The position numbers and the translations under genes are program-made. 64,000 nucleotides of DNA from Patescibacteria group bacterium (lineage in GTDB: Bacteria > Patescibacteriota > Microgenomatia > Levybacterales > GWA1-39-11), in NCBI GenBank assembly GCA_035549315.1, contig DASZRC010000003.1:10374-74373 (forward strand). The letters run 5' to 3'. The notes under the pieces were generated by a model. That model worked only from the letters and a program-made list of their open reading frames with translations. It had not been told where the DNA came from and did no database searches. Shown one piece after another: positions 12,187 through 64,000 of the stretch; within the stretch, counting starts at the first letter, position 1; each line of letters opens with the position of its first letter.

Positions 12187-13314
12187 TTACTGCGTGGATT
12201 GAGCTAATGTTGCTTTTAGGTCAATAGACTTGTCATCCCTAAAAACCTTTATATCAACCGTTTGTCCAACCTTTTTATTATTAATTATTGCGGCAAGACT
12301 TTTTGTATCATCTATTTTTTCTCCATCAATTTGCGTAATAATATCATCCCGCTGAACTCCAGCCTTCTCTGCGGGTGAACCTTCAACTACATCTCTTACA
12401 AGTGCCCCTTCATGTAAATCATTTGCCGCAGCTTGCTCTTTGTCTATTAATACGTAAGACACTCCCAAGAAAGCCCTGTTAAACTGTCCTGTTTTGTTGA
12501 ATGAGTCCAAAGATTGCTTAACCAGGTTAATAGGAATAGCAAAGCCAATGTTTTGCCCCTGTGATGCAACGGCCGTATTAATACCAATAACTTGTCCTGC
12601 AGAATTAAGAAGAGGCCCACCGGAATTACCCGGGTTAATTGCCGCGTCTGTTTGGATTACATTATCCAATTGCTCTACAAACCCTTCCATGGGAGAACCG
12701 GCATTAATTCCACGGCCAAGACCTGAAATAACTCCTGTTGTAACGGTATTTCTAAATTCTCCAAGAGCCGTACCAATTGCTATAGCAAATTGTCCAACTT
12801 GAAGCTTGTCCGAATCCCCAAAGGCAATTGGCTTTAAGCCTTCTTTTGGCGGATTTGAAATTTTAAGTATTGCTAAATCATTTAGAGGATCGCGATAAAT
12901 GTTTCCAATACTATATTTATTGCCTTTGGAATCTACAACTACATAAGTAACCCCCTGCTCGCTCACTACGTGCTTATTGGTGACTACCAAACCATCTTTT
13001 GAAACTATAAATCCGCTTCCTATATAGTCTTCTTCTTGTTTTCCTATTGTTGGGGTTGGTTCTTGGAAGAAAAATGAAAATGGACTATTCTCTTGTGAGG
13101 CTCTATCGCTAGTTTTAACTCCAACTGTAATTACAGATGGACCAACATTTTTTACTACATCTATTACATCCGACTGCTCTTTTACAAAAGGCGAGACGGT
13201 GTTAATAGAAGGCACAGATTGTTTATTTAGGAGTGCTGGTGCGTAATTTGTAAACGCCTCCCAAATAGCAAGAATAACTGCCAAAATTACTACAAATATT
13301 ATTAATCTACGCAT
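12187..13314 (-). CDS. htrA: HtrA/DegP-family serine protease (trypsin-like S1C with C-terminal PDZ)
   Basis: Catalytic triad context (GNSGGPLLN), N-terminal TM anchor, C-terminal PDZ segment. Confidence 0.85.
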   Translation of the reverse strand: MRRLIIFVVILAVILAIWEAFTNYAPALLNKQSVPSINTVSPFVKEQSDVIDVVKNVGPSVITVGVKTSDRASQENSPFSFFFQEPTPTIGKQEEDYIGSGFIVSKDGLVVTNKHVVSEQGVTYVVVDSKGNKYSIGNIYRDPLNDLAILKISNPPKEGLKPIAFGDSDKLQVGQFAIAIGTALGEFRNTVTTGVISGLGRGINAGSPMEGFVEQLDNVIQTDAAINPGNSGGPLLNSAGQVIGINTAVASQGQNIGFAIPINLVKQSLDSFNKTGQFNRAFLGVSYVLIDKEQAAANDLHEGALVRDVVEGSPAEKAGVQRDDIITQIDGEKIDDTKSLAAIINNKKVGQTVDIKVFRDDKSIDLKATLAQSTQ

Positions 13315-13401
13315 GGAAAAATATTCTAGTACATTGTTTTATGACTGTCAAACATAATAAAAAATGTTGCGAGCTTGCGGTTGGTAAGCTAAACTTTTAT
13401 T

Positions 13402-13956
13402 ATGTCTTCAAAACCAATAGTAAGAAAAGTTGTAGAGGAAGTAGCTGAAAAACCGCTGAAAGCCGTGGCTGAGGAAGGCGGAAAACAACTAAAAGCTGCA
13501 AGCCGCGACTTTGTTCAACAGCTGTTTGGAACTACTGATTTATCTGATAGCGATGTTGTCCAAAGAAGAATGGAGGACAAAGTGGCTGCTTCCCAAAACA
13601 TTGACTACATTCATAGAGAATTGGGAATGATGTCCGGGAAAAAAACCGAAACAATAAACCAACAAAACAAACAACAGTCAAATGAACTGTTAAAACGAGA
13701 ACTACATCGTGAACAGGTGGCAGAGGTTGTAGATAACAAAAGAAAAGGACCAACCCAACAAGAAATCGACAGAAGACGCCTGGAAGATTTGGAAAATGAA
13801 AAGAAAAATATAAACCTACAAAGGAAACAGGCAATGATGGCTCCGGTTGAAGCCCCAATGGGAAGAAAAACCGGAATGCCAAAAAGAAAATCTGCTCCCC
13901 ACCGCATGCAACCTCCAAAAACTAGTGAAAACAAAGCCGGCAGCTCTAGAGAATAA
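13402..13956 (+). CDS. Hypothetical low-complexity K/E/Q-rich protein
   Basis: ORF with strongly charged, coiled-coil-like composition. No family recognised. Confidence 0.4.
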   Translation: MSSKPIVRKVVEEVAEKPLKAVAEEGGKQLKAASRDFVQQLFGTTDLSDSDVVQRRMEDKVAASQNIDYIHRELGMMSGKKTETINQQNKQQSNELLKRELHREQVAEVVDNKRKGPTQQEIDRRRLEDLENEKKNINLQRKQAMMAPVEAPMGRKTGMPKRKSAPHRMQPPKTSENKAGSSRE

Positions 13957-13970
13957 TATTAGGCACAAAT

Positions 13971-13999
13971 TTGACAAAAGATTGATCTTTTGGCATAAT
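13971..13999 (+). promoter_or_regulatory. Sigma70-like promoter TTGACA-N17-CATAAT
   Basis: TTGACA at 13971-13976, exact 17-nt spacer, CATAAT at 13994-13999. Confidence 0.5.
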
Positions 14000-14106
14000 C
14001 AAAATCGTGAAAAGCAAATCTACTTTAAACCATTGGTATCACATCGTCTCCAAGGCGGCTGTGATTTTTGTGGTCTAAAATAGCAAATTAATTTCACAAA
14101 TAGCAA

Positions 14107-14128
14107 CCGCCGAAAGGGCGGTTTTTTT
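14107..14128 (+). terminator. Intrinsic terminator (CCGCC-GAAA-GGCGG hairpin plus T7) ending 19 nt before the aminotransferase ATG
   Basis: Perfect GC-rich stem, GNRA-like loop, TTTTTTT tract. Only functional on the + strand. Confidence 0.7.
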
Positions 14129-14146
14129 GTGGCAAAAAAGATAAAT

Positions 14147-15229
14147 ATGAAAATTTCGAACAAATTTAAACAATTTATGGAATCTAATCAGCAAATGTAC
14201 TGGATGCAGGACAGAAATGATATGGAGATAGATCTCTCACTTAGCGAAAACCCGCTAGGCTGCTCTCCTATGGTTAGAGATGCTCTATCTGAATCCAATG
14301 GCATAAATCACTATCCAGATCCGACAAACTCTAAATTAAAAACTAAATTGGCTGAAGAATTTTTACTGAACAAAGCAAATATAGCCATTGGGAATGGTAT
14401 AGGCCCCATTTTTGATGCCATTTGCAGAATAATTCTCGATGAAGGTGAAAACGTGATTATTCCACAACTTACTTTCCCTCTTATTGAACAATTAGTGAGG
14501 CTTAATTCTGGTAAACCCAAATTAATTCCCATGAAGTTAGATCTGACAACAAATTTGGAAACGATAGAAAGAGGAATAGATAAGAAAACTAAAGCTGTAT
14601 GCCTATGTAATCCCAATAACCCTACCGGAGAAGTGATATCAAGCAAAAAACTTATTAATTTGGCAAAGAAAATTTCACCCCTACTTTTAATCGTGGATGA
14701 GGCCAATATAGATTTTGGAGGCAAGAGCATTATCAACAGCATAAAATCTCAAAACAATATTGTTGTGTTAAGAACTTTCTCTAAAGGCTTTGGACTAGCC
14801 GGATTAAGAATCGCATTTATGGCTGCCCAAGAAGATATAGTGGATATGGTTGAAGAAATATTGATTTCATCCGAAATGAGCTCCGTTTCTCAATTGGCAG
14901 CTTTAACTGCTTTATGTGACAGAAAATTTCTATATGCAACTAGAGAATTTGTAAAACAAGAAAGAAAGTTTTTAGTTGATGAATTAACTTCTAGAGGCTT
15001 TGAGGTTGTTCCCGGCAAAGCTCTAAATATTCTAGTGAAAGTTAACGATTTCTTTTCCTCCTCTTCTTTACTATGCACTGAGTTGGAAAAAAGAGGTGTA
15101 AAAACTGTGAATGGAAATTGCTTTCAGGGGCTAGGAGAAAATTTTTTGAGAATATCCCCTCGTACAAGAGAAATAAATTTACTATTTTTAAAAGTTCTGG
15201 ATGAATTGTTAGAAAGGAGTTCAAATTAA
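14147..15229 (+). CDS. Class I/II (HisC-family) PLP-dependent aminotransferase; start moved from GTG 14129 to ATG 14147
   Basis: LSLSENPLGCSP (the HisC N-terminal motif), NPNNPTG, and FSKGFGLAGLRIAF containing the PLP-binding Lys. Confidence 0.75.
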   Translation: MKISNKFKQFMESNQQMYWMQDRNDMEIDLSLSENPLGCSPMVRDALSESNGINHYPDPTNSKLKTKLAEEFLLNKANIAIGNGIGPIFDAICRIILDEGENVIIPQLTFPLIEQLVRLNSGKPKLIPMKLDLTTNLETIERGIDKKTKAVCLCNPNNPTGEVISSKKLINLAKKISPLLLIVDEANIDFGGKSIINSIKSQNNIVVLRTFSKGFGLAGLRIAFMAAQEDIVDMVEEILISSEMSSVSQLAALTALCDRKFLYATREFVKQERKFLVDELTSRGFEVVPGKALNILVKVNDFFSSSSLLCTELEKRGVKTVNGNCFQGLGENFLRISPRTREINLLFLKVLDELLERSSN

Positions 15230-15230
15230 A

Positions 15231-16700
15231 ATGCTTGAACAATTTCAAAATATTGAAAACAGACAGAATACTTCATTAATAAATGAGTGGATTAACACTT
15301 CTTTACCATTTATACAAAGAAGGGACCAAATGGTAAGAGATTTGCAACAAGGGTTAGTGGAAATGGACGGATCTGACATAGTTTTTACTAGCGGACTTAG
15401 GGCGCCTAAATACCTTGCAAAAACAATGATGCTATGGGCAAATGAAGGTCCGCTATTTTTAGGATCATACTGCCACCCGGAACAATTTGATCTTTATACT
15501 GCAACCGCGTCTATTAATGCATCTCTGTTTTTAAAACAGTTAGCAACAAGAGGTAGAACGGTAGATAGACACGAAATGGCTGAAAATTGGTATGAAACGG
15601 TTGCTCTTGATAGAACGCTCACTACCCCATTTAGCTATGGCGATATATTTGGTGTAAAAAATGATTTTCTTGGACTTGGGGGTGTTAAATATGGAACTGA
15701 ACCATTATCCATAGAGGATCAGCAAGATCTTCTTGAACAAACCGACTGCATGGAGATAAGCACATCTATTGTAGGGAGACTATCGACTGAAATACTTAAC
15801 GAGCAAAATACAATAGGGCTTAATAGGCCACAGAAAAAAATGCAACAAGAAGCAATAGCATCACTTGTTTCTTCTAGACTCCAAGAAATAAAAGATTTAG
15901 CTGCTTCTTCACTTGAAGGAGTTGCTGGACAAAACCCAAGAATAGACGACTTCCTAATGATATTTGAACAAAAGTTTTTTGGAAAAATTATTAAAACCCA
16001 ACCTATTCCTTTAGAACCCAGGTTATCAGATATAGTTGGGATAGAAAGCACACTCTTCTCTAATAATCGCAGGCACCTCAGTTTAATTTTTAAGACTCTG
16101 GAAATTCTAAATAACGAATTTGGCCCTCAAATATTTAAAAAACTTATTGAGTCATCTAGCGAAGGGCTGTTTTTTGGCAATCTAAACGGAAGAGAAACCG
16201 ATATTACCGTAGCCGATGATACAAAAGAGTTTATTCTAAGAGATAGAAAAACCGGAGCAATGGGGACAATATTAAGCGATGATAGCATGATAGGTTTTGT
16301 TAGGGACAATAATTTTCTCCCCTTGGCCAAATCCGAGATGCTTGCCGTTGCAAGCGGTGCTACAACTTTACATATGGGATCGGAACACGGAAATAGAGAA
16401 AAAGTTCTAGATGCTCTAGGCATAAATAAAGATCAATATTTTGAATTTAGATCATTTATGAATGGTATGAGAGTAGGTCAAGATTTGGAGCAGGGACACC
16501 CCGTAATAAAAATAGAAGGTGTAGCTAGATTTATCTCACCAATTCTCCTATATGCACTTTTGGGAAAAGACTTTCTTAGATCAAGAATTTTAGCCAAATC
16601 TGGAACACGAGATGAGTCTGACATATTCACAAATAAGGAGTTTAGAGTTTTTTGTGCAAAAGAGTTAGTAAAATTGACAACTCCCACTGATTTAATATGA
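15231..16700 (+). CDS. Hypothetical protein (489 aa), operon member with no recognisable family
   Basis: Long ORF tightly packed between the aminotransferase (2-nt gap) and the M29 peptidase (ATGA overlap). Confidence 0.55.
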   Translation: MLEQFQNIENRQNTSLINEWINTSLPFIQRRDQMVRDLQQGLVEMDGSDIVFTSGLRAPKYLAKTMMLWANEGPLFLGSYCHPEQFDLYTATASINASLFLKQLATRGRTVDRHEMAENWYETVALDRTLTTPFSYGDIFGVKNDFLGLGGVKYGTEPLSIEDQQDLLEQTDCMEISTSIVGRLSTEILNEQNTIGLNRPQKKMQQEAIASLVSSRLQEIKDLAASSLEGVAGQNPRIDDFLMIFEQKFFGKIIKTQPIPLEPRLSDIVGIESTLFSNNRRHLSLIFKTLEILNNEFGPQIFKKLIESSSEGLFFGNLNGRETDITVADDTKEFILRDRKTGAMGTILSDDSMIGFVRDNNFLPLAKSEMLAVASGATTLHMGSEHGNREKVLDALGINKDQYFEFRSFMNGMRVGQDLEQGHPVIKIEGVARFISPILLYALLGKDFLRSRILAKSGTRDESDIFTNKEFRVFCAKELVKLTTPTDLI

Positions 16701-54647: not shown

Positions 54648-55097
54648 TTATACCAAAGAAGCAAGGTCTTGGAGGATTTGAGAGGGATTGGTGAGAGGAT
54701 TTACTTTTTCATAGCTTTTTACAATCTCGCCTTTTGGATTAACTATATAAGTATTTCTTAATGTTCCATCAAACTCCCTACCCATAAATTTCTTTCTTCC
54801 CCATGCTCCATATGCTTCAATTACTTTGTGTTCTGGGTCTGCAAGCAACGTAAAGTTTAATTTATATTTTGTTTCAAATTTTTTGTGGGAACGTACCGTA
54901 TCTTTTGATATACCAACAACTTCTACTCCAAGCTTTTTAAATTCACTGCTTGAATCACGAAAACTGCATGCTTCTTTTGTGCAACCGGGCGTATCATCCC
55001 TTGGATAAAAATAAACAATTAACCATTTGTTTAAGTAATCTGAGAGCTTGTGTATCTCTCCATTTTGGTCCGGCAGTTCAAAGCTTGGTGCTTTCAT
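54648..55097 (-). CDS. bcp: Peroxiredoxin Bcp (thiol peroxidase, AhpC/TSA family)
   Basis: YFYPRDDTPGCTKEAC peroxidatic-Cys motif. Confidence 0.85.
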   Translation of the reverse strand: MKAPSFELPDQNGEIHKLSDYLNKWLIVYFYPRDDTPGCTKEACSFRDSSSEFKKLGVEVVGISKDTVRSHKKFETKYKLNFTLLADPEHKVIEAYGAWGRKKFMGREFDGTLRNTYIVNPKGEIVKSYEKVNPLTNPSQILQDLASLV

Positions 55098-59542: not shown

Positions 59543-60229
59543 CTAGGAGTCTGAAACTTTTTCAACTACGCTGGGTCTTTTAAACTTAAACATCTTATCT
59601 ACCATTATTAGTCCTATTATGACGAACACCCAGGAAAATTGTGCGATCAACGGATGTATAAAGGCAAGCGGAACAGCAATGGCAAAAACAACAGGAGGAA
59701 CAAGAAAAGTAAGGCTATAATATCTAATATGTCTTGGGCTTAAATTTTTATCTATTAGCTCTTTTTTCTCACATGCATAAAGCCATATACTGGCGAGCAA
59801 TAAACCAACAACCGCAAGACTTGCAGAATAAAAGGCAACAACAACAGGAACAGTATTATGGTCACCATACAAATCAACAGGAAATGGAAGAAATGAAAGA
59901 GAAATTAAAAAAACTATATTTATCCAAACTATATTCTTATCAAACTTTCTTATCAATCCAAAAATTGCATGGTGGTTTAGCCAGTAAAATCCTATTATTA
60001 AAAAGCTGATTATATTAGCAAGATATTGCGGCCAAAGAGAAATTAATGCACCGGGCAGCGCAATATTTACATCCCCTACTACTGCCGGCAGATCAATTTT
60101 TAATACAAGAAGAGTTGCAGCAAATGCAAAAACGCCATCGGAAAAGTTTGTTACCCTATTCTGATCTACCAAATCAATAATTGCTTCTACCGCTTCCTTC
60201 TTTTCTTCTTTATTTTTCTTTTTATCCAT
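59543..60229 (-). CDS. TMEM175/DUF1211-family potassium channel homologue
   Basis: RVTNFSDGVFAFAATLLVLKI matches the TM1 signature RxxxFSDGVFAIAxTLLVL; 6 TM; 228 aa. Confidence 0.65.
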   Translation of the reverse strand: MDKKKNKEEKKEAVEAIIDLVDQNRVTNFSDGVFAFAATLLVLKIDLPAVVGDVNIALPGALISLWPQYLANIISFLIIGFYWLNHHAIFGLIRKFDKNIVWINIVFLISLSFLPFPVDLYGDHNTVPVVVAFYSASLAVVGLLLASIWLYACEKKELIDKNLSPRHIRYYSLTFLVPPVVFAIAVPLAFIHPLIAQFSWVFVIIGLIMVDKMFKFKRPSVVEKVSDS

Positions 60230-60294
60230 ACATTAAGCCTACAATAAAAATCGCTAACCTAGCAAGTAGCAACAAAAAACTTTATAATATTTTT

Positions 60295-61821
60295 ATGAAT
60301 AGCCCCATTTTGCTTCTAGATAATTTCCTCAACTCTATAACTATGTACCGCCTAATCCTTTATGGATTAATATGCATGATTGCCTTTTCAATCTTTGCCG
60401 GATTTACAAAACTTATTCCATATGGCGGAGTTCAGCTTGTAATTTCTTTGTTTGTTCTTATTGTTTCTTGTTTTATATTTAATTTTATTTTTGAAAAAAT
60501 TCTTAAAGCAACCGTAAATCAAGAATCTTATCTAATAACGGCTTTAATTCTATATTTTGTTATGCTCCCAGCTGTAGATAAACAAGCAATAATTGCATTG
60601 ATACTGGCAAGTCTAGCCGCCATTGCCTCAAAATTTATATTTGCATATAAGAAGAAACATATTTTTAATCCGGCAGCAATTGCTGCCGTAATCATTAGCC
60701 TATCCGGACTTGGATATGCAATTTGGTGGGTAGGAAGTTTCATTATGCTACCCATTACATTGATCGTTGGTCTACTTGTTGTTAGAAAAATAAGAAGATT
60801 TAAACTATTTTTCGCCTTTTTAATTACCACTCTAATAACCATGGTTTTGTTTGGTTTTATAAATAACAGAAACCCTATAGAGGTTATAAAGGTTGCTATC
60901 CTCTCCTATCCTGTCATTTTCTTTGGAACAATCATGCTAACAGAACCCTCTACTACACCACCAACAAAAAAGCTTCAGGCTATATATGGAATATTAGTAG
61001 GTATAATTTTTGGTTCCCAATTCCGTATTGGACCAATTAGTCCTACACCGGAAATTGCATTAATAATTGGAAATATCTATTCCTATGCAGTATCTTCAAA
61101 ACAAAAGCTTTTCCTACAGTTTGAAAGCCAAGCCCAAATTGCAAAGGACACCTATGAATTTGTTTTTGGGGGAAAGAACAACTTTGCTTTTACAGCCGGG
61201 CAGTATTTGGAATGGACATTACCAAATGTAAAAATAAATTCAAGGGGAAACAGAAGATTTTTTACAATAGCATCTTCTCCAACCGAAGATAAAATAAAGT
61301 TGGGCCTTAAAATTTCACAAGACTCTAGCGACTTTAAGAAAAAGCTGCTTGGACTTAAACCCGGAGACCAAATAATAGGTAACCAATTATCCGGTGATTT
61401 TAGCCTTCCAAAAGATCAGAATAAAAAATTGGTATTTATAGCAGGTGGAATTGGCATCACGCCATTTAGAAGTATTATTGAATATATGCTGGATAAAAAG
61501 GATAGACGAGATATTACCCTGTTTTATTCAAACAAAACATCTGACGAAATTGCATACAAAAATATTCTTGAAAGAGCAAATAAAGAACTTGGTATTAAGA
61601 CCATTTTTCTTCTAAATGATGGCCAAACAATGCCAAGCGGTGTTGATTTTGAAATTGGGAGACTAAACGCTGATATGCTTAAAAAATATGTAGCCGATTG
61701 CACTAATAGAACTTTTTATGTCTCTGGTCCCGAAGGAATGGTTAATGCGTACAAAAGTTTATTAAAATCTATGGGTATTAAGAATAGCTGTATAATCACA
61801 GATTACTTCCCCGGTTTTTAA
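60295..61821 (+). CDS. Fusion protein: RnfD/NqrB-like polytopic membrane domain plus C-terminal FNR-like FAD/NAD(P)H oxidoreductase domain
   Basis: Membrane domain contains KHIFNPAA. C-terminus has RRFFTIASSP (the FAD RxYS motif) and FIAGGIGITPF (NAD(P)H binding). Start moved to the ATG at 60295, after a TATAAT box. Confidence 0.55.
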   Translation: MNSPILLLDNFLNSITMYRLILYGLICMIAFSIFAGFTKLIPYGGVQLVISLFVLIVSCFIFNFIFEKILKATVNQESYLITALILYFVMLPAVDKQAIIALILASLAAIASKFIFAYKKKHIFNPAAIAAVIISLSGLGYAIWWVGSFIMLPITLIVGLLVVRKIRRFKLFFAFLITTLITMVLFGFINNRNPIEVIKVAILSYPVIFFGTIMLTEPSTTPPTKKLQAIYGILVGIIFGSQFRIGPISPTPEIALIIGNIYSYAVSSKQKLFLQFESQAQIAKDTYEFVFGGKNNFAFTAGQYLEWTLPNVKINSRGNRRFFTIASSPTEDKIKLGLKISQDSSDFKKKLLGLKPGDQIIGNQLSGDFSLPKDQNKKLVFIAGGIGITPFRSIIEYMLDKKDRRDITLFYSNKTSDEIAYKNILERANKELGIKTIFLLNDGQTMPSGVDFEIGRLNADMLKKYVADCTNRTFYVSGPEGMVNAYKSLLKSMGIKNSCIITDYFPGF

Positions 61822-61844
61822 GATACATTTGGTAAAATACACCA

Positions 61845-62720
61845 ATGCAGCCAACTAGCTTCTCCTATCAATCCATGGGCACATCTTGGGAAATAACAAT
61901 TTGGGATAAAATTGATGACACAAAGTTGAAAAAAATTAAAAAACAAATAACTTCCGGATCAAGAGATTTTGATAAAACTTTTTCTCGCTTCAAACCCAAT
62001 TCTTTTATAACAAAAGTGTCCAAAAAGAAAGGAAAGATCAAAGTACCAAAAGATTTTGTAAAAATGCTTGAACTTTATTTTGATCTTTACGACTTATCAG
62101 AAAAGAAAGTTAACCCACTCATAGGACAAGCTCTATCTGACATGGGTTATGATTCTAATTATTCATTGAGGCCAAAAGAGAAAATAAGTAAAGTTCCGGA
62201 TTTAAAAAAAATGGTTTCCATAATTGATGATGAAAATGTATTTACAACTATCCCACTACTCTTTGATTTCGGCGCACTTGGAAAAGGATATTTTGTAGAC
62301 AGAATAAAGGATATTTTAGAAGAAAATAATATAGAAAGATTTCTTGTTAATGGTAGCGGAGATATATATTACAAGGGTCCACCCAATTCTCTTAGGGCTG
62401 GCCTGGAACATCCTATGGATGATACAAAAGTGATTGGGGTTATTAATATGGGAAATGGTGCAATGTGTGCATCTTCCGGAAACAGGAGAAAATGGAGAAA
62501 TTATCATCACATAATAAACCCAATAACACTTGCTCCCGCAAACGAAATAATTGCCACTTGGGTTATGGCTGATAACGCTGCACTTTCAGATGCGCTGGCT
62601 ACTTGTTTATTCTTTGTTTCTCCCAAAAATTTTGAAAATAAATTTAAGTTTGAATATTTAATTCTAAATAAAGAAATGAGGGTAAAAAAATCTGAAGGGT
62701 TTGCTGCGGAATTGTTCTAA
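61845..62720 (+). CDS. apbE: FAD:protein FMN transferase (ApbE family)
   Basis: SMGTSWEITIWD, GALGKGYFVD, NGSGDIYYKG and SSGNRRKW blocks match ApbE. Confidence 0.7.
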   Translation: MQPTSFSYQSMGTSWEITIWDKIDDTKLKKIKKQITSGSRDFDKTFSRFKPNSFITKVSKKKGKIKVPKDFVKMLELYFDLYDLSEKKVNPLIGQALSDMGYDSNYSLRPKEKISKVPDLKKMVSIIDDENVFTTIPLLFDFGALGKGYFVDRIKDILEENNIERFLVNGSGDIYYKGPPNSLRAGLEHPMDDTKVIGVINMGNGAMCASSGNRRKWRNYHHIINPITLAPANEIIATWVMADNAALSDALATCLFFVSPKNFENKFKFEYLILNKEMRVKKSEGFAAELF

Positions 62721-63184
62721 GCCCTTGCCTGTGCTTTTATTTGTTTCAAAGCGTCCATAAATCCTTTTGGAGTAAGGGAGGAACCATTAACAACGTCCAT
62801 GCTTATTTCATCAATTGGCTTTCCAACAACTAAATCTTTGTAGCCATCTTTAAAATTATTTTGCATAAACTTTGTAGTTGGGGCCGCATCTGACGAACCC
62901 ACAAAATTTACATCTGTAACCTTTCCGTCCTTTATAGTTAGCGTTACATTAACTGCCTCAATGCGATCCGGATTTTGGTAATGACCGGTTGCTTTGTATG
63001 TTCCGTCTTTATAGCTGGCTGCTGCGGAGGGGGAAGCCTCACTAGGCATTGGGGTGGAAGTTGGAGTCATTGTTTCAGACTTCTTATCTGTTGATTGACC
63101 CTTAATAGCAAATTCCCATATGGCAAATACTATGATTATAACAACGAGGGCGATGACAATTACCTTTATGCTTTTGGAATTCAC
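62717..63184 (-). CDS. Membrane-anchored FMN-binding-domain protein (NqrC/RnfG-like); probable GTG start at 63184, and the ORF could extend to 63247
   Basis: YKDGTYKATG...TLTIKDGKVTDVNF...DVVNGSSLT resembles FMN_bind domains, including the flavinylation-site region. Confidence 0.55.
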   Translation of the reverse strand: MNSKSIKVIVIALVVIIIVFAIWEFAIKGQSTDKKSETMTPTSTPMPSEASPSAAASYKDGTYKATGHYQNPDRIEAVNVTLTIKDGKVTDVNFVGSSDAAPTTKFMQNNFKDGYKDLVVGKPIDEISMDVVNGSSLTPKGFMDALKQIKAQARA

Positions 63185-63245
63185 AATAGTTAATAAGATA
63201 CAACAATTAAAAAATCTTTGCAACCCCAAAAGGGCCTCAAATAGC

Positions 63246-63278
63246 ATGAGAACTCTTTCTTTTAAAAAGAGTTCTCAT
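63246..63278. terminator. 13-bp perfect inverted repeat ATGAGAACTCTTT-N7-AAAGAGTTCTCAT
   Basis: Exact palindrome seen directly in the sequence, between convergently arranged minus-strand genes. Confidence 0.4.
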
Positions 63279-63299: not shown

Positions 63300-63494
63300 T
63301 TATTTCTTCTTCTTTCCTGTAAGTTTTAAGTAAGCTACGATCACTGCAACTATTCCAACAACTATTTCAATTACATTTGCTAGAGAAAGTCCAAGGCTAG
63401 TTACCAAAAGGTTGTTGCCGGTAAGACCGTCATAACCCCAAAGTAAACCTCCTACGATAAGTACCCAGATTAAATATGGTTTGTATTCACGCAT
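63300..63494 (-). CDS. Small membrane protein (64 aa, 2 TM)
   Basis: Hydrophobic ORF. Confidence 0.4.
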   Translation of the reverse strand: MREYKPYLIWVLIVGGLLWGYDGLTGNNLLVTSLGLSLANVIEIVVGIVAVIVAYLKLTGKKKK

Positions 63495-63614: not shown

Positions 63615-64000
63615 TTATTTGTTTTTTCCCCGCATCCAATCTACGGCTTTCAAAATTGGAGCATAAACGTCATCTTCAATTTCAATTTTTAATTCAGACA
63701 ACTCTTCTTCTGTAGGATTTCTGTCTTGGAATTTTACAAATGGAATATCTGTAATCACGGCTATTGGTGTTTGCTCTGCACCCTCCCCCATTACTAATCC
63801 CGCAGCATTTGCCAACCCATCCGCAACGGCAATCTTTGTCATTTTAAGCTTTCTTCCAAAAATATCCGGGGTTCCAATCATGTCATTTATTGCAGCAAAT
63901 CCGCTATGCGCAATAAAAATTACTCCCACTCCCCATCTTAACGGGGATGTTTTACTATCCGTTATAAGTACTCCCAAATTTTTTATGCCAAATTTTTTTG
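63615..64000 (-). CDS. CofE-like (F420-0:gamma-glutamyl ligase family) protein, C-terminal part; the gene continues past the window end
   Basis: GVGVIFIAHSGFAAIND...KIAVADGLANAAGLVMGEGAEQTPIAVI matches the CofE/FbiB ligase core. Confidence 0.45.
   Translation of the reverse strand, partial: KKFGIKNLGVLITDSKTSPLRWGVGVIFIAHSGFAAINDMIGTPDIFGRKLKMTKIAVADGLANAAGLVMGEGAEQTPIAVITDIPFVKFQDRNPTEEELSELKIEIEDDVYAPILKAVDWMRGKNK

Follow-up and report, generated by a model that had tools for sequence, protein, structure and literature searches.

A candidate NQR/RNF-like flavin module in a Patescibacteria genome: a membrane-reductase fusion, a signal-less ApbE and a divergent FMN-binding partner

Patescibacteria are generally portrayed as fermentative organisms that have no electron-transport chain. 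Among described flavin-dependent systems, the closest to the locus analysed here are the NQR/RNF-like systems, which have been predicted from genomes (Méheust et al. 2021, eLife, PMC8238504; Huang et al. 2024, mSystems, PMC11334425) and are found in CPR, Chloroflexota and Actinomycetota. They comprise a PF03116-PF00175 fusion whose gene lies next to apbE and to the gene for an NqrC/RnfG-like FMN-binding subunit, and they are predicted to pass electrons one way, from NAD(P)H outwards. According to the published model, the second subunit, an NqrC/RnfG homologue, binds to the membrane subunit from its outer side (Huang et al. 2024, PMC11334425). No experimental study of any member of this family was found in the literature. 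Two other systems offer a comparison, namely the Na+-NQR and Rnf complexes and the extracellular electron transfer (EET) chain of Listeria monocytogenes, in which electrons likewise pass from cytoplasmic NADH to a surface protein whose FMN_bind domains carry FMN attached by an ApbE-type enzyme, FmnB.

The window examined here, a stretch of 64,000 nucleotides from a Patescibacteria genome, contains three adjacent flavin-related genes. The first, on the forward strand (60295..61821), encodes a 508-aa fusion of an NqrB/RnfD-like membrane domain with an NqrF-like FAD/NAD(P)H reductase domain. It is followed 23 bp downstream on the same strand (61845..62720) by the gene for ApbE, a 291-aa member of the FAD:protein FMN transferase family, and the third gene, on the reverse strand (62717..63247; longest ORF 176 aa), encodes an NqrC/RnfG-like, membrane-anchored FMN_bind protein and is convergent with apbE, the two 3' ends sharing 4 bp. 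All of these genes, and every motif quoted in the initial annotation, were found where that annotation had placed them; the fusion ORF stood as well, although the 509 aa given for it proved to be 508 aa plus the stop. The grouping is real and not due to chance, because, of 80 related loci, 66 have an ApbE gene and 71 an FMN_bind gene next to that for the fusion protein; the first of these counts also answers positively the question of whether homologues elsewhere co-occur with ApbE. The complete trio stays together in about 64 of the 80 related genomes. Apart from these partners, no conserved fourth gene that might name the electron acceptor emerged, the neighbour clusters of the 80 loci reaching 13/80 at most; ABC transporter, HlyD-like and two-component genes come next in frequency (12–13 of the 80 loci). 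In the window itself, the module is surrounded by genes for a TMEM175-like channel, an alpha/beta hydrolase, small membrane proteins and a CofE-like protein, and the other window ORFs (20 large ones, scanned with Pfam) are either housekeeping genes or have no Pfam match. The Rfam scan returned two tRNAs only, both distant from the locus, and promoter and terminator scans around it gave counts no higher than the shuffled expectation. A 64-aa DUF378-like ORF located upstream of the gene for FMN_bind was considered as a further part of the module and rejected, since it is not conserved in that setting.

The fusion architecture had been put forward as uncharacterised, which holds as far as experiments are concerned; as a claim of novelty it fails, since this architecture has already been described, named and modelled, being defined as "NQR/RNF-like" by Méheust et al. 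(2021) and modelled by Huang et al. (2024). In line with the former definition, the window encodes an N-terminal PF03116 (NqrB/RnfD) and a C-terminal PF00175 (NqrF-type) domain in one protein, with an ApbE or FMN_bind gene within five genes of the fusion, and, as in the latter description, the membrane domain lacks the flavinylated Thr of NqrB/RnfD. The window module differs from the described systems in its longer ApbE (about 290 aa), in an NGSS rather than SGAT acceptor motif and in its convergent FMN_bind gene. We favour, with moderate confidence, the reading that the locus codes for an NQR/RNF-like system, in which two subunits make up a flavin-only transmembrane oxidoreductase and the third protein is the enzyme that matures it.

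When the fusion protein is considered first, its start codon (ATG at 60295) is supported by the fact that 30 aligned homologues all begin at the conserved IDxFLNxITMYR. The C-terminal FNR-type domain (61105..61818, forward strand; residues 271-508) consists of an FAD-binding barrel and an NAD(P)H-binding fold, includes the motifs RRFFTIASSP (61252..61281, forward strand) and GGIGITPF (61444..61467, forward strand), and matches Pfam NAD_binding_1 with 58.4 bits (cut-off 22). Profile, structure-prediction and fold-search tests agree on this half. The N-terminal membrane domain (60295..61104, forward strand; residues 1-270) is predicted to have ten membrane-spanning segments with both termini inside. 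It contains the RnfD/NqrB-type motif KHIFNPAA (60655..60678, forward strand; translation checked) in a predicted cytoplasmic loop, a region in which H122, F124, N125, P126 and A128 are invariant among the 30 homologues. Pfam NQR2_RnfD_RnfE scored 46.3 bits (cut-off 27.7), and NCBIfam rnfD (TIGR01946) covers residues 36-137. A phmmer search of the membrane half against PDB sequences found no match, and a profile of it found RnfD (8ahx_D, E 0.004) as its sole match. Sequence and profile searches being insufficient, the NqrB/RnfD assignment was settled by fold comparison; Pfam, structure prediction and fold search thus agree with the RnfD/NqrB-like nature first proposed for this half.

As regards topology, the loops of the fusion protein contain 12.3 Lys and Arg on the predicted inside compared with 0.9 on the outside, which places the FNR domain in the cytoplasm and a shortened loop outside, both as predictions. 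This short loop, residues 137-151 (SGLGYAIWWVGSFIM; 60703..60747, forward strand), was delimited by profile alignment to RnfD, in which RnfD residue 222 pairs with fusion residue 153 and about 90 RnfD residues are matched by about 24 in the fusion protein. The RnfD stretch is thus some 65 residues longer and presumably holds the flavinylated Thr at this position. In the fusion protein the loop has no charged residue and no acceptor motif, and this reading is in line with Huang et al. 2024 (PMC11334425). The absence of a site is general, as the fusion protein of the window contains no [ST]G[AS][ST] motif along its whole length, and in 258 of 261 homologues the membrane half is free of one as well. 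An invariant TEPxTTPPT loop was considered as a flavinylation site and rejected; RnfD has T-D-P-V-T-S-P at the aligned position, where we know of no reported flavinylation, and the missing [ST]G[AS][ST] motif likewise speaks against it.

These features bear on a rival reading, in which the genes are what is left of a conventional Rnf or Nqr ion pump, or code for one part of it, with the remaining subunits located at other loci. In its favour, the proteins are homologous to RnfD/NqrB, NqrF and NqrC/RnfG in both sequence and fold. However, RnfA/B/C/E and NqrA/D/E were absent both from the scanned window ORFs and from the 10 kb on either side of the module on the source contig, and no Rnf or Nqr subunit occurs among the conserved neighbours in the 80 loci. 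Moreover, the loop that is flavinylated in RnfD/NqrB does not occur here, no 2Fe-2S ferredoxin domain like that of NqrF accompanies the FNR domain (only the FAD/NAD part is matched), and hundreds of genomes have kept the three genes together as a unit of their own, all of which makes an ion-pump remnant highly improbable. Indeed, compared with Na+-NQR and Rnf, the module is without NqrA, NqrD/E (RnfA/E), RnfB, RnfC and an Fe-S centre, its B/D-type domain is without covalent FMN (on the SGAT Thr), and its reductase is fused to the membrane subunit. Electron flow is probably outward and one-way rather than semicircular and ion-pumping.

The membrane domain being without a flavinylation site, Ser157 of the FMN_bind protein is the only predicted target, so that the proposed search for such a site in both proteins succeeded, as a prediction, for the FMN_bind subunit and failed for the RnfD-like domain. 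The FMN_bind protein probably starts at a GTG at 63184, giving 155 aa. An N-terminal signal-anchor helix (IKVIVIALVVIIIVFAIWEFAI; 63104..63169, reverse strand) is followed by a Pro/Thr/Ser-rich linker, and the predicted flavinylation motif D-V-V-N-G-S-S lies at 62777..62797 (reverse strand), with the acceptor Ser157, numbered on the longest ORF, at 62777-62779. Profile and fold tests recovered the FMN_bind (NqrC/RnfG) fold and thereby confirmed the third gene as one for a membrane-anchored FMN_bind-domain protein. The homology and fold of NqrC/RnfG thus belong to the window's own subunit, and its docking to the published model only. When set against D-x-x-[ST]-G-A-[ST], the motif of FMN_bind (PF04205) domains flavinylated by ApbE, it keeps the Asp, the Gly and the acceptor Ser, with Asn at position 4 and Ser at position 6; hhalign aligned it with canonical SGAT, it also aligns with the 'SGAT' of PDB 8p2a, and the acceptor Ser is invariant in sets of 21 and 35 subtype-B homologues. 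Published mutagenesis of the ApbE motif found that changes at the Gly or Ala position lower flavinylation without abolishing it, and Ser is a worse acceptor than Thr. Flavinylation of Ser157 is thus inferred from the motif, the fold and the predicted topology of the subunit, which are themselves in evidence.

With respect to that topology, the flank N-terminal to the anchor is on average more positive than the C-terminal flank (net charge +1.70 vs +0.42 in 74 homologues), being more positive in 52 of them and less so in 10 (Wilcoxon p 6e-8), and two homologues have lipoboxes; the FMN_bind domain is therefore predicted outside, as had been expected of it. This evidence weighs directly on the alternative of a cytoplasmic FMN_bind domain, with FAD and covalent FMN on the inner side alike, with the RnfD-like domain serving as an anchor, an ion channel or a membrane-side acceptor site and with no extracytoplasmic chain at all. 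Such an arrangement would be the simplest account of an ApbE without an export signal, and it has parallels in known cytoplasmic ApbE/FMN_bind systems, such as the fumarate reductase of Klebsiella (review PMC12052999). It nevertheless conflicts with the charge rule and the two lipoboxes, with a Pro/Thr/Ser-rich stalk typical of exported proteins, and with the published AlphaFold-multimer model, in which the FMN_bind domain is extracytosolic and its flavinylation site comes close to where the membrane domain appears to bind flavin (Huang et al. 2024, PMC11334425). We consider a cytoplasmic domain quite improbable also from a physiological point of view. To our knowledge, Patescibacteria are generally reported to be without quinones, which could otherwise act as the membrane acceptor.

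The identity of the second gene as an ApbE flavin transferase is upheld by Pfam (PF02424, E 1.9e-44, residues 11-262 of the product of 61845-62720), FMN transfer itself being predicted. His222 aligns with the conserved His of the solved structures 6nxi and 1vrm and with that of Vibrio cholerae ApbE, a residue which we take to be the catalytic base; the D-x-x-x-T motif, here D249-A-L-A-T253, whose residues we take to be the Mg ligands, is likewise conserved against 6nxi and 1vrm, and the IIDP motif reads IINP in the window (N225). An N-terminal signal peptide or lipobox is typical of the ApbE family, though not universal. In the window ApbE, whose ORF allows no upstream extension, in 66 operon homologues and in 120 database homologues, neither a signal peptide nor a hydrophobic N-terminal segment was found. 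As the substrate is predicted to lie outside, the model leaves a step without explanation, and the question arises of where and when extracytoplasmic flavoproteins become flavinylated. In text searches, PMC8238504 and PMC11334425 made no mention of a missing export signal in the cognate ApbE.

A possible answer, which keeps the same complex and the same electron flow, is that ApbE flavinylates the unfolded FMN_bind precursor with cytoplasmic FAD before Sec export, in which case neither FAD nor ApbE would need to be exported. The absence of an export signal throughout the operon and database copies fits this order of events. So does the co-variation of ApbE subtype with acceptor motif (42/43 for subtype A, 20/20 for subtype B), which indicates an enzyme-substrate pair. 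At the biochemical level, ApbE recognises a tag of 7 residues, the enzyme works in the cytoplasm if produced there, and Klebsiella has cytosolic ApbEs (review PMC12052999). In Listeria, extracytosolic flavinylation depends on distinct ECF transporter subunits for extracytosolic flavin trafficking (PMC9973259). On the other hand, signal-anchored proteins usually insert co-translationally and would spend little time in the cytoplasm; we know of no precedent for Sec translocation of an FMN-esterified chain; and a second, secreted ApbE may be encoded elsewhere in the genome, of which 82 kb were examined. Flavinylation ahead of export is therefore to be held tentatively, as a rather unlikely solution. 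The same caution applies to a joint reading in which the signal-less ApbE modifies the exported subunit in the cytoplasm before translocation and the quinone-, haem- and Fe-S-free complex is the sole transmembrane redox device; it is a doubtful proposition, as is its extension to Patescibacteria, Chloroflexota and Actinomycetota alike, with the complex connecting the NAD(P)H of fermentation to an acceptor that is external or comes from the host.

Taking up again the favoured reading of an NQR/RNF-like oxidoreductase, the electron path could be as follows. Cytoplasmic NAD(P)H would be oxidised by the FAD of the NqrF-like C-terminal domain, an activity suggested by domain identity; the NqrB/RnfD-fold domain would then carry the electrons across the membrane, probably via a non-covalent flavin. 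NqrB itself holds flavins near both membrane faces. FMN esterified by ApbE to Ser157 of the FMN_bind subunit would receive the electrons at the outer face, and, since the RnfD-like domain has lost its own flavinylation loop, it is this subunit that would supply the outer flavin. That ApbE subtype varies together with the acceptor motif supports such a pairing of enzyme and substrate here too. The outer FMN might finally reduce an extracytoplasmic acceptor, e.g., Fe(III), soluble flavins, O2 or a host-derived oxidant. The flow from NAD(P)H to an extracytoplasmic covalent flavin, which the initial annotation had likened to that of Listeria, is thus supported and matches the published prediction for this cluster type (PMC8238504, PMC11334425). 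In contrast to Listeria, however, the module does without a type II NADH dehydrogenase, a demethylmenaquinone step and EetA/B, the membrane step being performed by an NqrB-fold domain. Listeria FmnB is a lipoprotein, and none of Ndh2, EetA, EetB, DmkA/DmkB, PplA and FmnB was found in the scanned window ORFs; the NCBIfam PplA match to the window FMN_bind protein is weak (E 5.7e-5, 22 bits vs a cut-off of 325). FmnB is extracytosolic (PMC9973259), whereas the ApbE of the module has no signal.

The same path might also serve a dedicated assimilatory ferric reductase acting on extracellular Fe(III) for uptake, in the manner of MsrQ-like, PepSY-like or FRE/NOX-type enzymes. Neither the window nor the 80 related loci, though, revealed an iron transporter or any other partner that is conserved. 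NOX/FRE/MsrQ-like proteins are six-helix bis-haem cytochromes, whereas the module has a ten-helix NqrB/RnfD fold with a single conserved His, no haem pairs and no conserved His/Cys ligand set for haem or Fe-S in the membrane half; without haem ligands, it is not an FRE/NOX homologue. A role in iron uptake is hence unlikely. For a fermenter free of quinones and cytochromes, the NQR/RNF-like module would likely bring a benefit by re-oxidising NAD(P)H or by reducing external substrates. A widespread and conserved flavin-only route of this kind, leading from NAD(P)H to the cell exterior, would let Patescibacteria dispose of reducing equivalents or reduce substrates outside the cell, with possible significance for how they live on host cells. 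Being small (two proteins plus a maturase) and present in cultivable Ktedonobacteria such as Dictyobacter, the module is directly testable.

Finally, the fusion family occurs in at least 593 species genomes, mostly of Patescibacteria, with others from Chloroflexota and Actinomycetota, and forms 1,869 clusters at 50% identity, so that the 127 clusters published for the NQR/RNF-like system are a large undercount. Published counts for this system, and for CPR flavinylation generally, are underestimates, based as they are on Pfam hits and signal-peptide filters. The window module belongs to a divergent subtype with an xGSS acceptor motif, whose FMN_bind partner is mostly missed by Pfam (6/120 precomputed hits). 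What is added to the published picture is thus Ser157 as the sole predicted target, the divergent xGSS subtype and the signal-less operon ApbE. Three long FMN_bind-ApbE ORFs (L050, L018 and L058), which might have been taken for natural fusions, were judged artefacts, either because the reading frame runs on upstream into the FMN_bind gene with which it overlaps or because of a frame shift in MAG assembly. The usual gene order is FMN_bind, ApbE, fusion; in the window, it is fusion, ApbE and a convergent FMN_bind gene.

The three adjacent genes of the initial annotation, and all of the motifs quoted there, are found at the expected positions when the translations are checked. The first, encoding the fusion protein, occupies 60295-61821 on the plus strand (508 codons), and its start is fixed by alignment, with 30 of 30 homologues starting at a conserved IDxFLNxITMYR. 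It is followed 23 bases downstream, on the same strand, by the ApbE gene (61845-62720, 291 codons), which converges with the FMN_bind ORF on the minus strand (62717-63247, 176 codons) and overlaps it by 4 bp. Between a 64-aa ORF and the FMN_bind gene lies an inverted repeat with perfect 11-bp arms (GAGAACTCTTT, 7-nt loop, AAAGAGTTCTC; 63248-63276, minus strand). Because it sits at the upstream ATG 63247, translation of FMN_bind probably begins at the GTG at 63184 instead, with a product of 155 aa that matches the NCBI annotation (P0315). The repeat itself may be a terminator or attenuator.

Profile searches bear out both halves of the fusion as first described. The RnfD/NqrB-like membrane half (residues 1-270) matches Pfam NQR2_RnfD_RnfE at 46.3 bits (cut-off 27.7) and the NCBIfam rnfD model over residues 36-137, and the FNR-like half matches NAD_binding_1 at 58.4 bits (cut-off 22) as well as NCBIfam FNR-family reductase models, NqrF included, over residues ~275-505. 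At the sequence level, the signal for the identity of the membrane half is weak: phmmer found no PDB relative for it, and a 14-sequence profile of this half had Azotobacter RnfD as its sole match (E 0.004, residues 153-257). When helices are taken from a predicted structure model and charges are counted over 30 homologues, lysine and arginine amount to 12.3 per protein on the predicted inside loops versus 0.9 on the outside loops. This bias indicates ten spans with both ends of the membrane domain inside, and the FNR module is therefore predicted to lie in the cytoplasm, on the NAD(P)H side. Across the homologues, the membrane half conserves a single His and a single Cys, and it shows no conserved haem or Fe-S ligands.

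The flavinylation motif, published as D-x-x-[S/T]-G-A-[S/T] (PMC12052999), was to be sought in both the fusion and the FMN_bind protein, and a predicted site is present only in the latter. No [ST]G[AS][ST] occurs anywhere in the window's fusion protein; it is missing from the membrane half in 258 of 261 full-length fusion homologues, and the full motif is found in the membrane half of none of the 261. In a profile alignment, ~24 residues of the fusion align with ~90 residues of RnfD, and the outside loop inside this shortened stretch consists of 15 uncharged residues; the RnfD stretch presumably includes the flavinylated Thr of that protein. The FMN_bind protein carries the motif D-V-V-N-G-S-S, whose last Ser (Ser157 of the 176-aa ORF; 62777-62779) occupies the position of the acceptor Thr in alignments to canonical FMN_bind domains and is invariant among subtype-B homologues. 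The N-terminus of the protein forms a single hydrophobic helix, after which comes a linker rich in Pro, Thr and Ser. Among 74 homologues, the N-terminal flank of this anchor is more positive than the C-terminal one (52 vs 10; Wilcoxon p 6e-8), and two contain lipoboxes, so that the flavin domain is predicted outside the cell, as first proposed.

The second gene unambiguously encodes ApbE (Pfam 1.9e-44), in agreement with its earlier assignment, and its H222 and D-x-x-x-T (D249, T253) align with solved ApbE enzymes; we take H222 to be the catalytic base and D249/T253 to be Mg ligands. Right after the His-containing stretch, residue 225 (62517-62519) is Asn instead of Asp (HHIINP vs HHIIDP of the solved enzymes). 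ApbE is usually a secreted lipoprotein (PMC12052999). The window's ApbE ORF has no possible upstream extension, and a hydrophobic N-terminal segment is found in none of 66 operon ApbEs, even from the most upstream start codon, nor in any of 120 independently called homologues (279-317 aa). The ApbE is thus without an export signal while its substrate domain is predicted outside, a mismatch with three candidate explanations. The unfolded FMN_bind precursor might be flavinylated in the cytoplasm and then exported, which would also spare the cell the export of FAD; the FMN_bind domain might be cytoplasmic after all, although anchor charges and lipoboxes predict the opposite; or a second, secreted ApbE might be encoded in the genome outside the ~82 kb covered here. 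Text searches of PMC8238504 and PMC11334425 found no discussion of a signal-less cognate ApbE.

Two subtypes of the module can be distinguished. Subtype A combines an ApbE of ~248 aa with an FMN_bind protein bearing the canonical VDxxSGAT, whereas subtype B, that of the window, combines an ApbE of ~290 aa with x-K-V-S-G-S-S-L-T-P-K-G-F, present as an N-G-S-S variant in the window and in another fusion-bearing locus, L008. ApbE subtype pairs with FMN_bind motif in 42 of 43 subtype A and 20 of 20 subtype B cases, and this near-perfect pairing argues that the two proteins are enzyme and substrate. The subtype B FMN_bind protein is nearly invisible to Pfam, with a precomputed PF04205 match in only 6 of 120 relatives and a match at E <= 0.01 in 9 of 21 proteins.

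The fusion has more than 7,800 matches among database proteins, the best 120 of which are all ~505 aa long with 95-100% query coverage, and searching 1.84 billion cluster representatives with a profile yielded 1,869 matches at E <= 1e-30. A pattern scan over one genome per species, which yields a lower bound, places the fusion in at least 593 species genomes; the carriers listed are mostly Patescibacteria, together with Actinomycetota and with Chloroflexota, one of them the cultured Dictyobacter aurantiacus S27. Many carrier MAG records (loci L004, L005, L007, L012, L016, L021 and others) are titled "uncultured Gammaproteobacteria" or "Pseudomonadales". These labels look unreliable, because the proteins have Patescibacteria proteins as best matches (45-57% identity to the Patescibacteria fusion protein) and two records titled "uncultured Gammaproteobacteria" each consist of one contig, 0.71 and 0.95 Mb long. 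Across 80 loci, the fusion gene is adjacent to ApbE in 66, the co-occurrence looked for at the outset, and neighbours FMN_bind in 71. The commonest order is an operon of FMN_bind, ApbE and fusion; in the window and L008 it is fusion, ApbE and convergent FMN_bind. No conserved fourth gene emerges among these neighbours, the top candidates reaching only 12-13 of the 80 loci: ABC-transporter ATPase/permease, HlyD-like, and histidine-kinase plus response-regulator genes after the module, at a distance of 2-5 kb downstream from the fusion gene in L011, L052, L060, L081 and ~10 others. The window contains none of them, and their association may be lineage-specific.

Méheust et al. 2021 (PMC8238504) apply the name NQR/RNF-like system to an apbE/FMN_bind cluster that contains a PF03116-PF00175 fusion, an operational definition that covers the window locus. 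The RnfD-FNR fusion, initially not recognised as characterised, had accordingly been defined and named; the literature search turned up no experiments on it, so the architecture is known and named, and experimentally uncharacterised. Huang et al. 2024 (PMC11334425) modelled the complex of Ktedonobacter racemifer with AlphaFold-multimer, report the flavinylation Thr missing from the membrane subunit, a trait shared with the window, and suggest that the small-subunit FMN samples the flavin site of its membrane partner. Méheust et al. also accepted only clusters in which a signal peptide was predicted, and for the candidate phyla radiation they describe flavinylation as "strikingly underrepresented"; owing to that demand and to how poorly Pfam covers subtype B, both their count and this statement are underestimates. 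The locus is a divergent-subtype example of a known, experimentally untested system, whose architecture will not surprise a specialist and which is small, widespread and testable.

Along the most likely path, NAD(P)H would reduce the FAD of the FNR domain in the cytoplasm, and electrons would pass to a flavin bound non-covalently by the NqrB-fold domain, then at the outer face to the FMN that is esterified to the FMN_bind subunit at Ser157, and on to some external acceptor. This path, whose catalytic steps, cofactor within the membrane, direction and acceptor are all putative, builds on the domain identities, topology predictions, conserved acceptor Ser, genetic linkage and absent haem/Fe-S ligands established here. 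The idea of a flavin chain from NAD(P)H to the outside is supported, and coincides with the hypothesis published in PMC8238504 and PMC11334425.

The window belongs to contig CAZPDH010000020.1 of the MAG GCA_964585445.1, the proteins of which are labelled "Patescibacteria group bacterium" at NCBI. It has a G+C content of ~36%, and of 20 large ORFs scanned with Pfam elsewhere in it, 13 belong to housekeeping families (DnaB, aminoacyl-tRNA synthetases, RF-1, a DNA polymerase III clamp-loader delta-prime family subunit) and 7 have no match. At 5 kb from the module, on its upstream side, is a peroxiredoxin gene (AhpC-TSA/Redoxin; 54648-55097, minus strand) surrounded by small secreted or membrane proteins without family assignment. 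Divergent from the fusion gene and 65 bp apart is a TMEM175-family potassium channel homologue (59543-60229, minus strand; Pfam 3.9e-26). A TATAAT hexamer at 60283-60288, 6 nt upstream of the fusion ATG, suggests a transcript that is leaderless or has a very short leader. The ORF immediately preceding FMN_bind (63300-63494, minus strand) encodes a two-helix membrane protein of 64 aa that matches DUF378 weakly (E 0.009) and is not conserved beside the module in the 80 related loci. Three further minus-strand genes adjoin the module, from 63615-63977 and past the window end (13240-15239 in locus L001): a CofE-like F420-0:gamma-glutamyl ligase family gene (PF01996), a DHFR/RibD_C-like reductase gene and a Vut_1 vitamin or queuosine-precursor transporter gene, all flavin-, deazaflavin- or folate-related. 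In L004, from the closest species-level relative, ORFs resembling this trio by size and order only are located upstream of the fusion gene.
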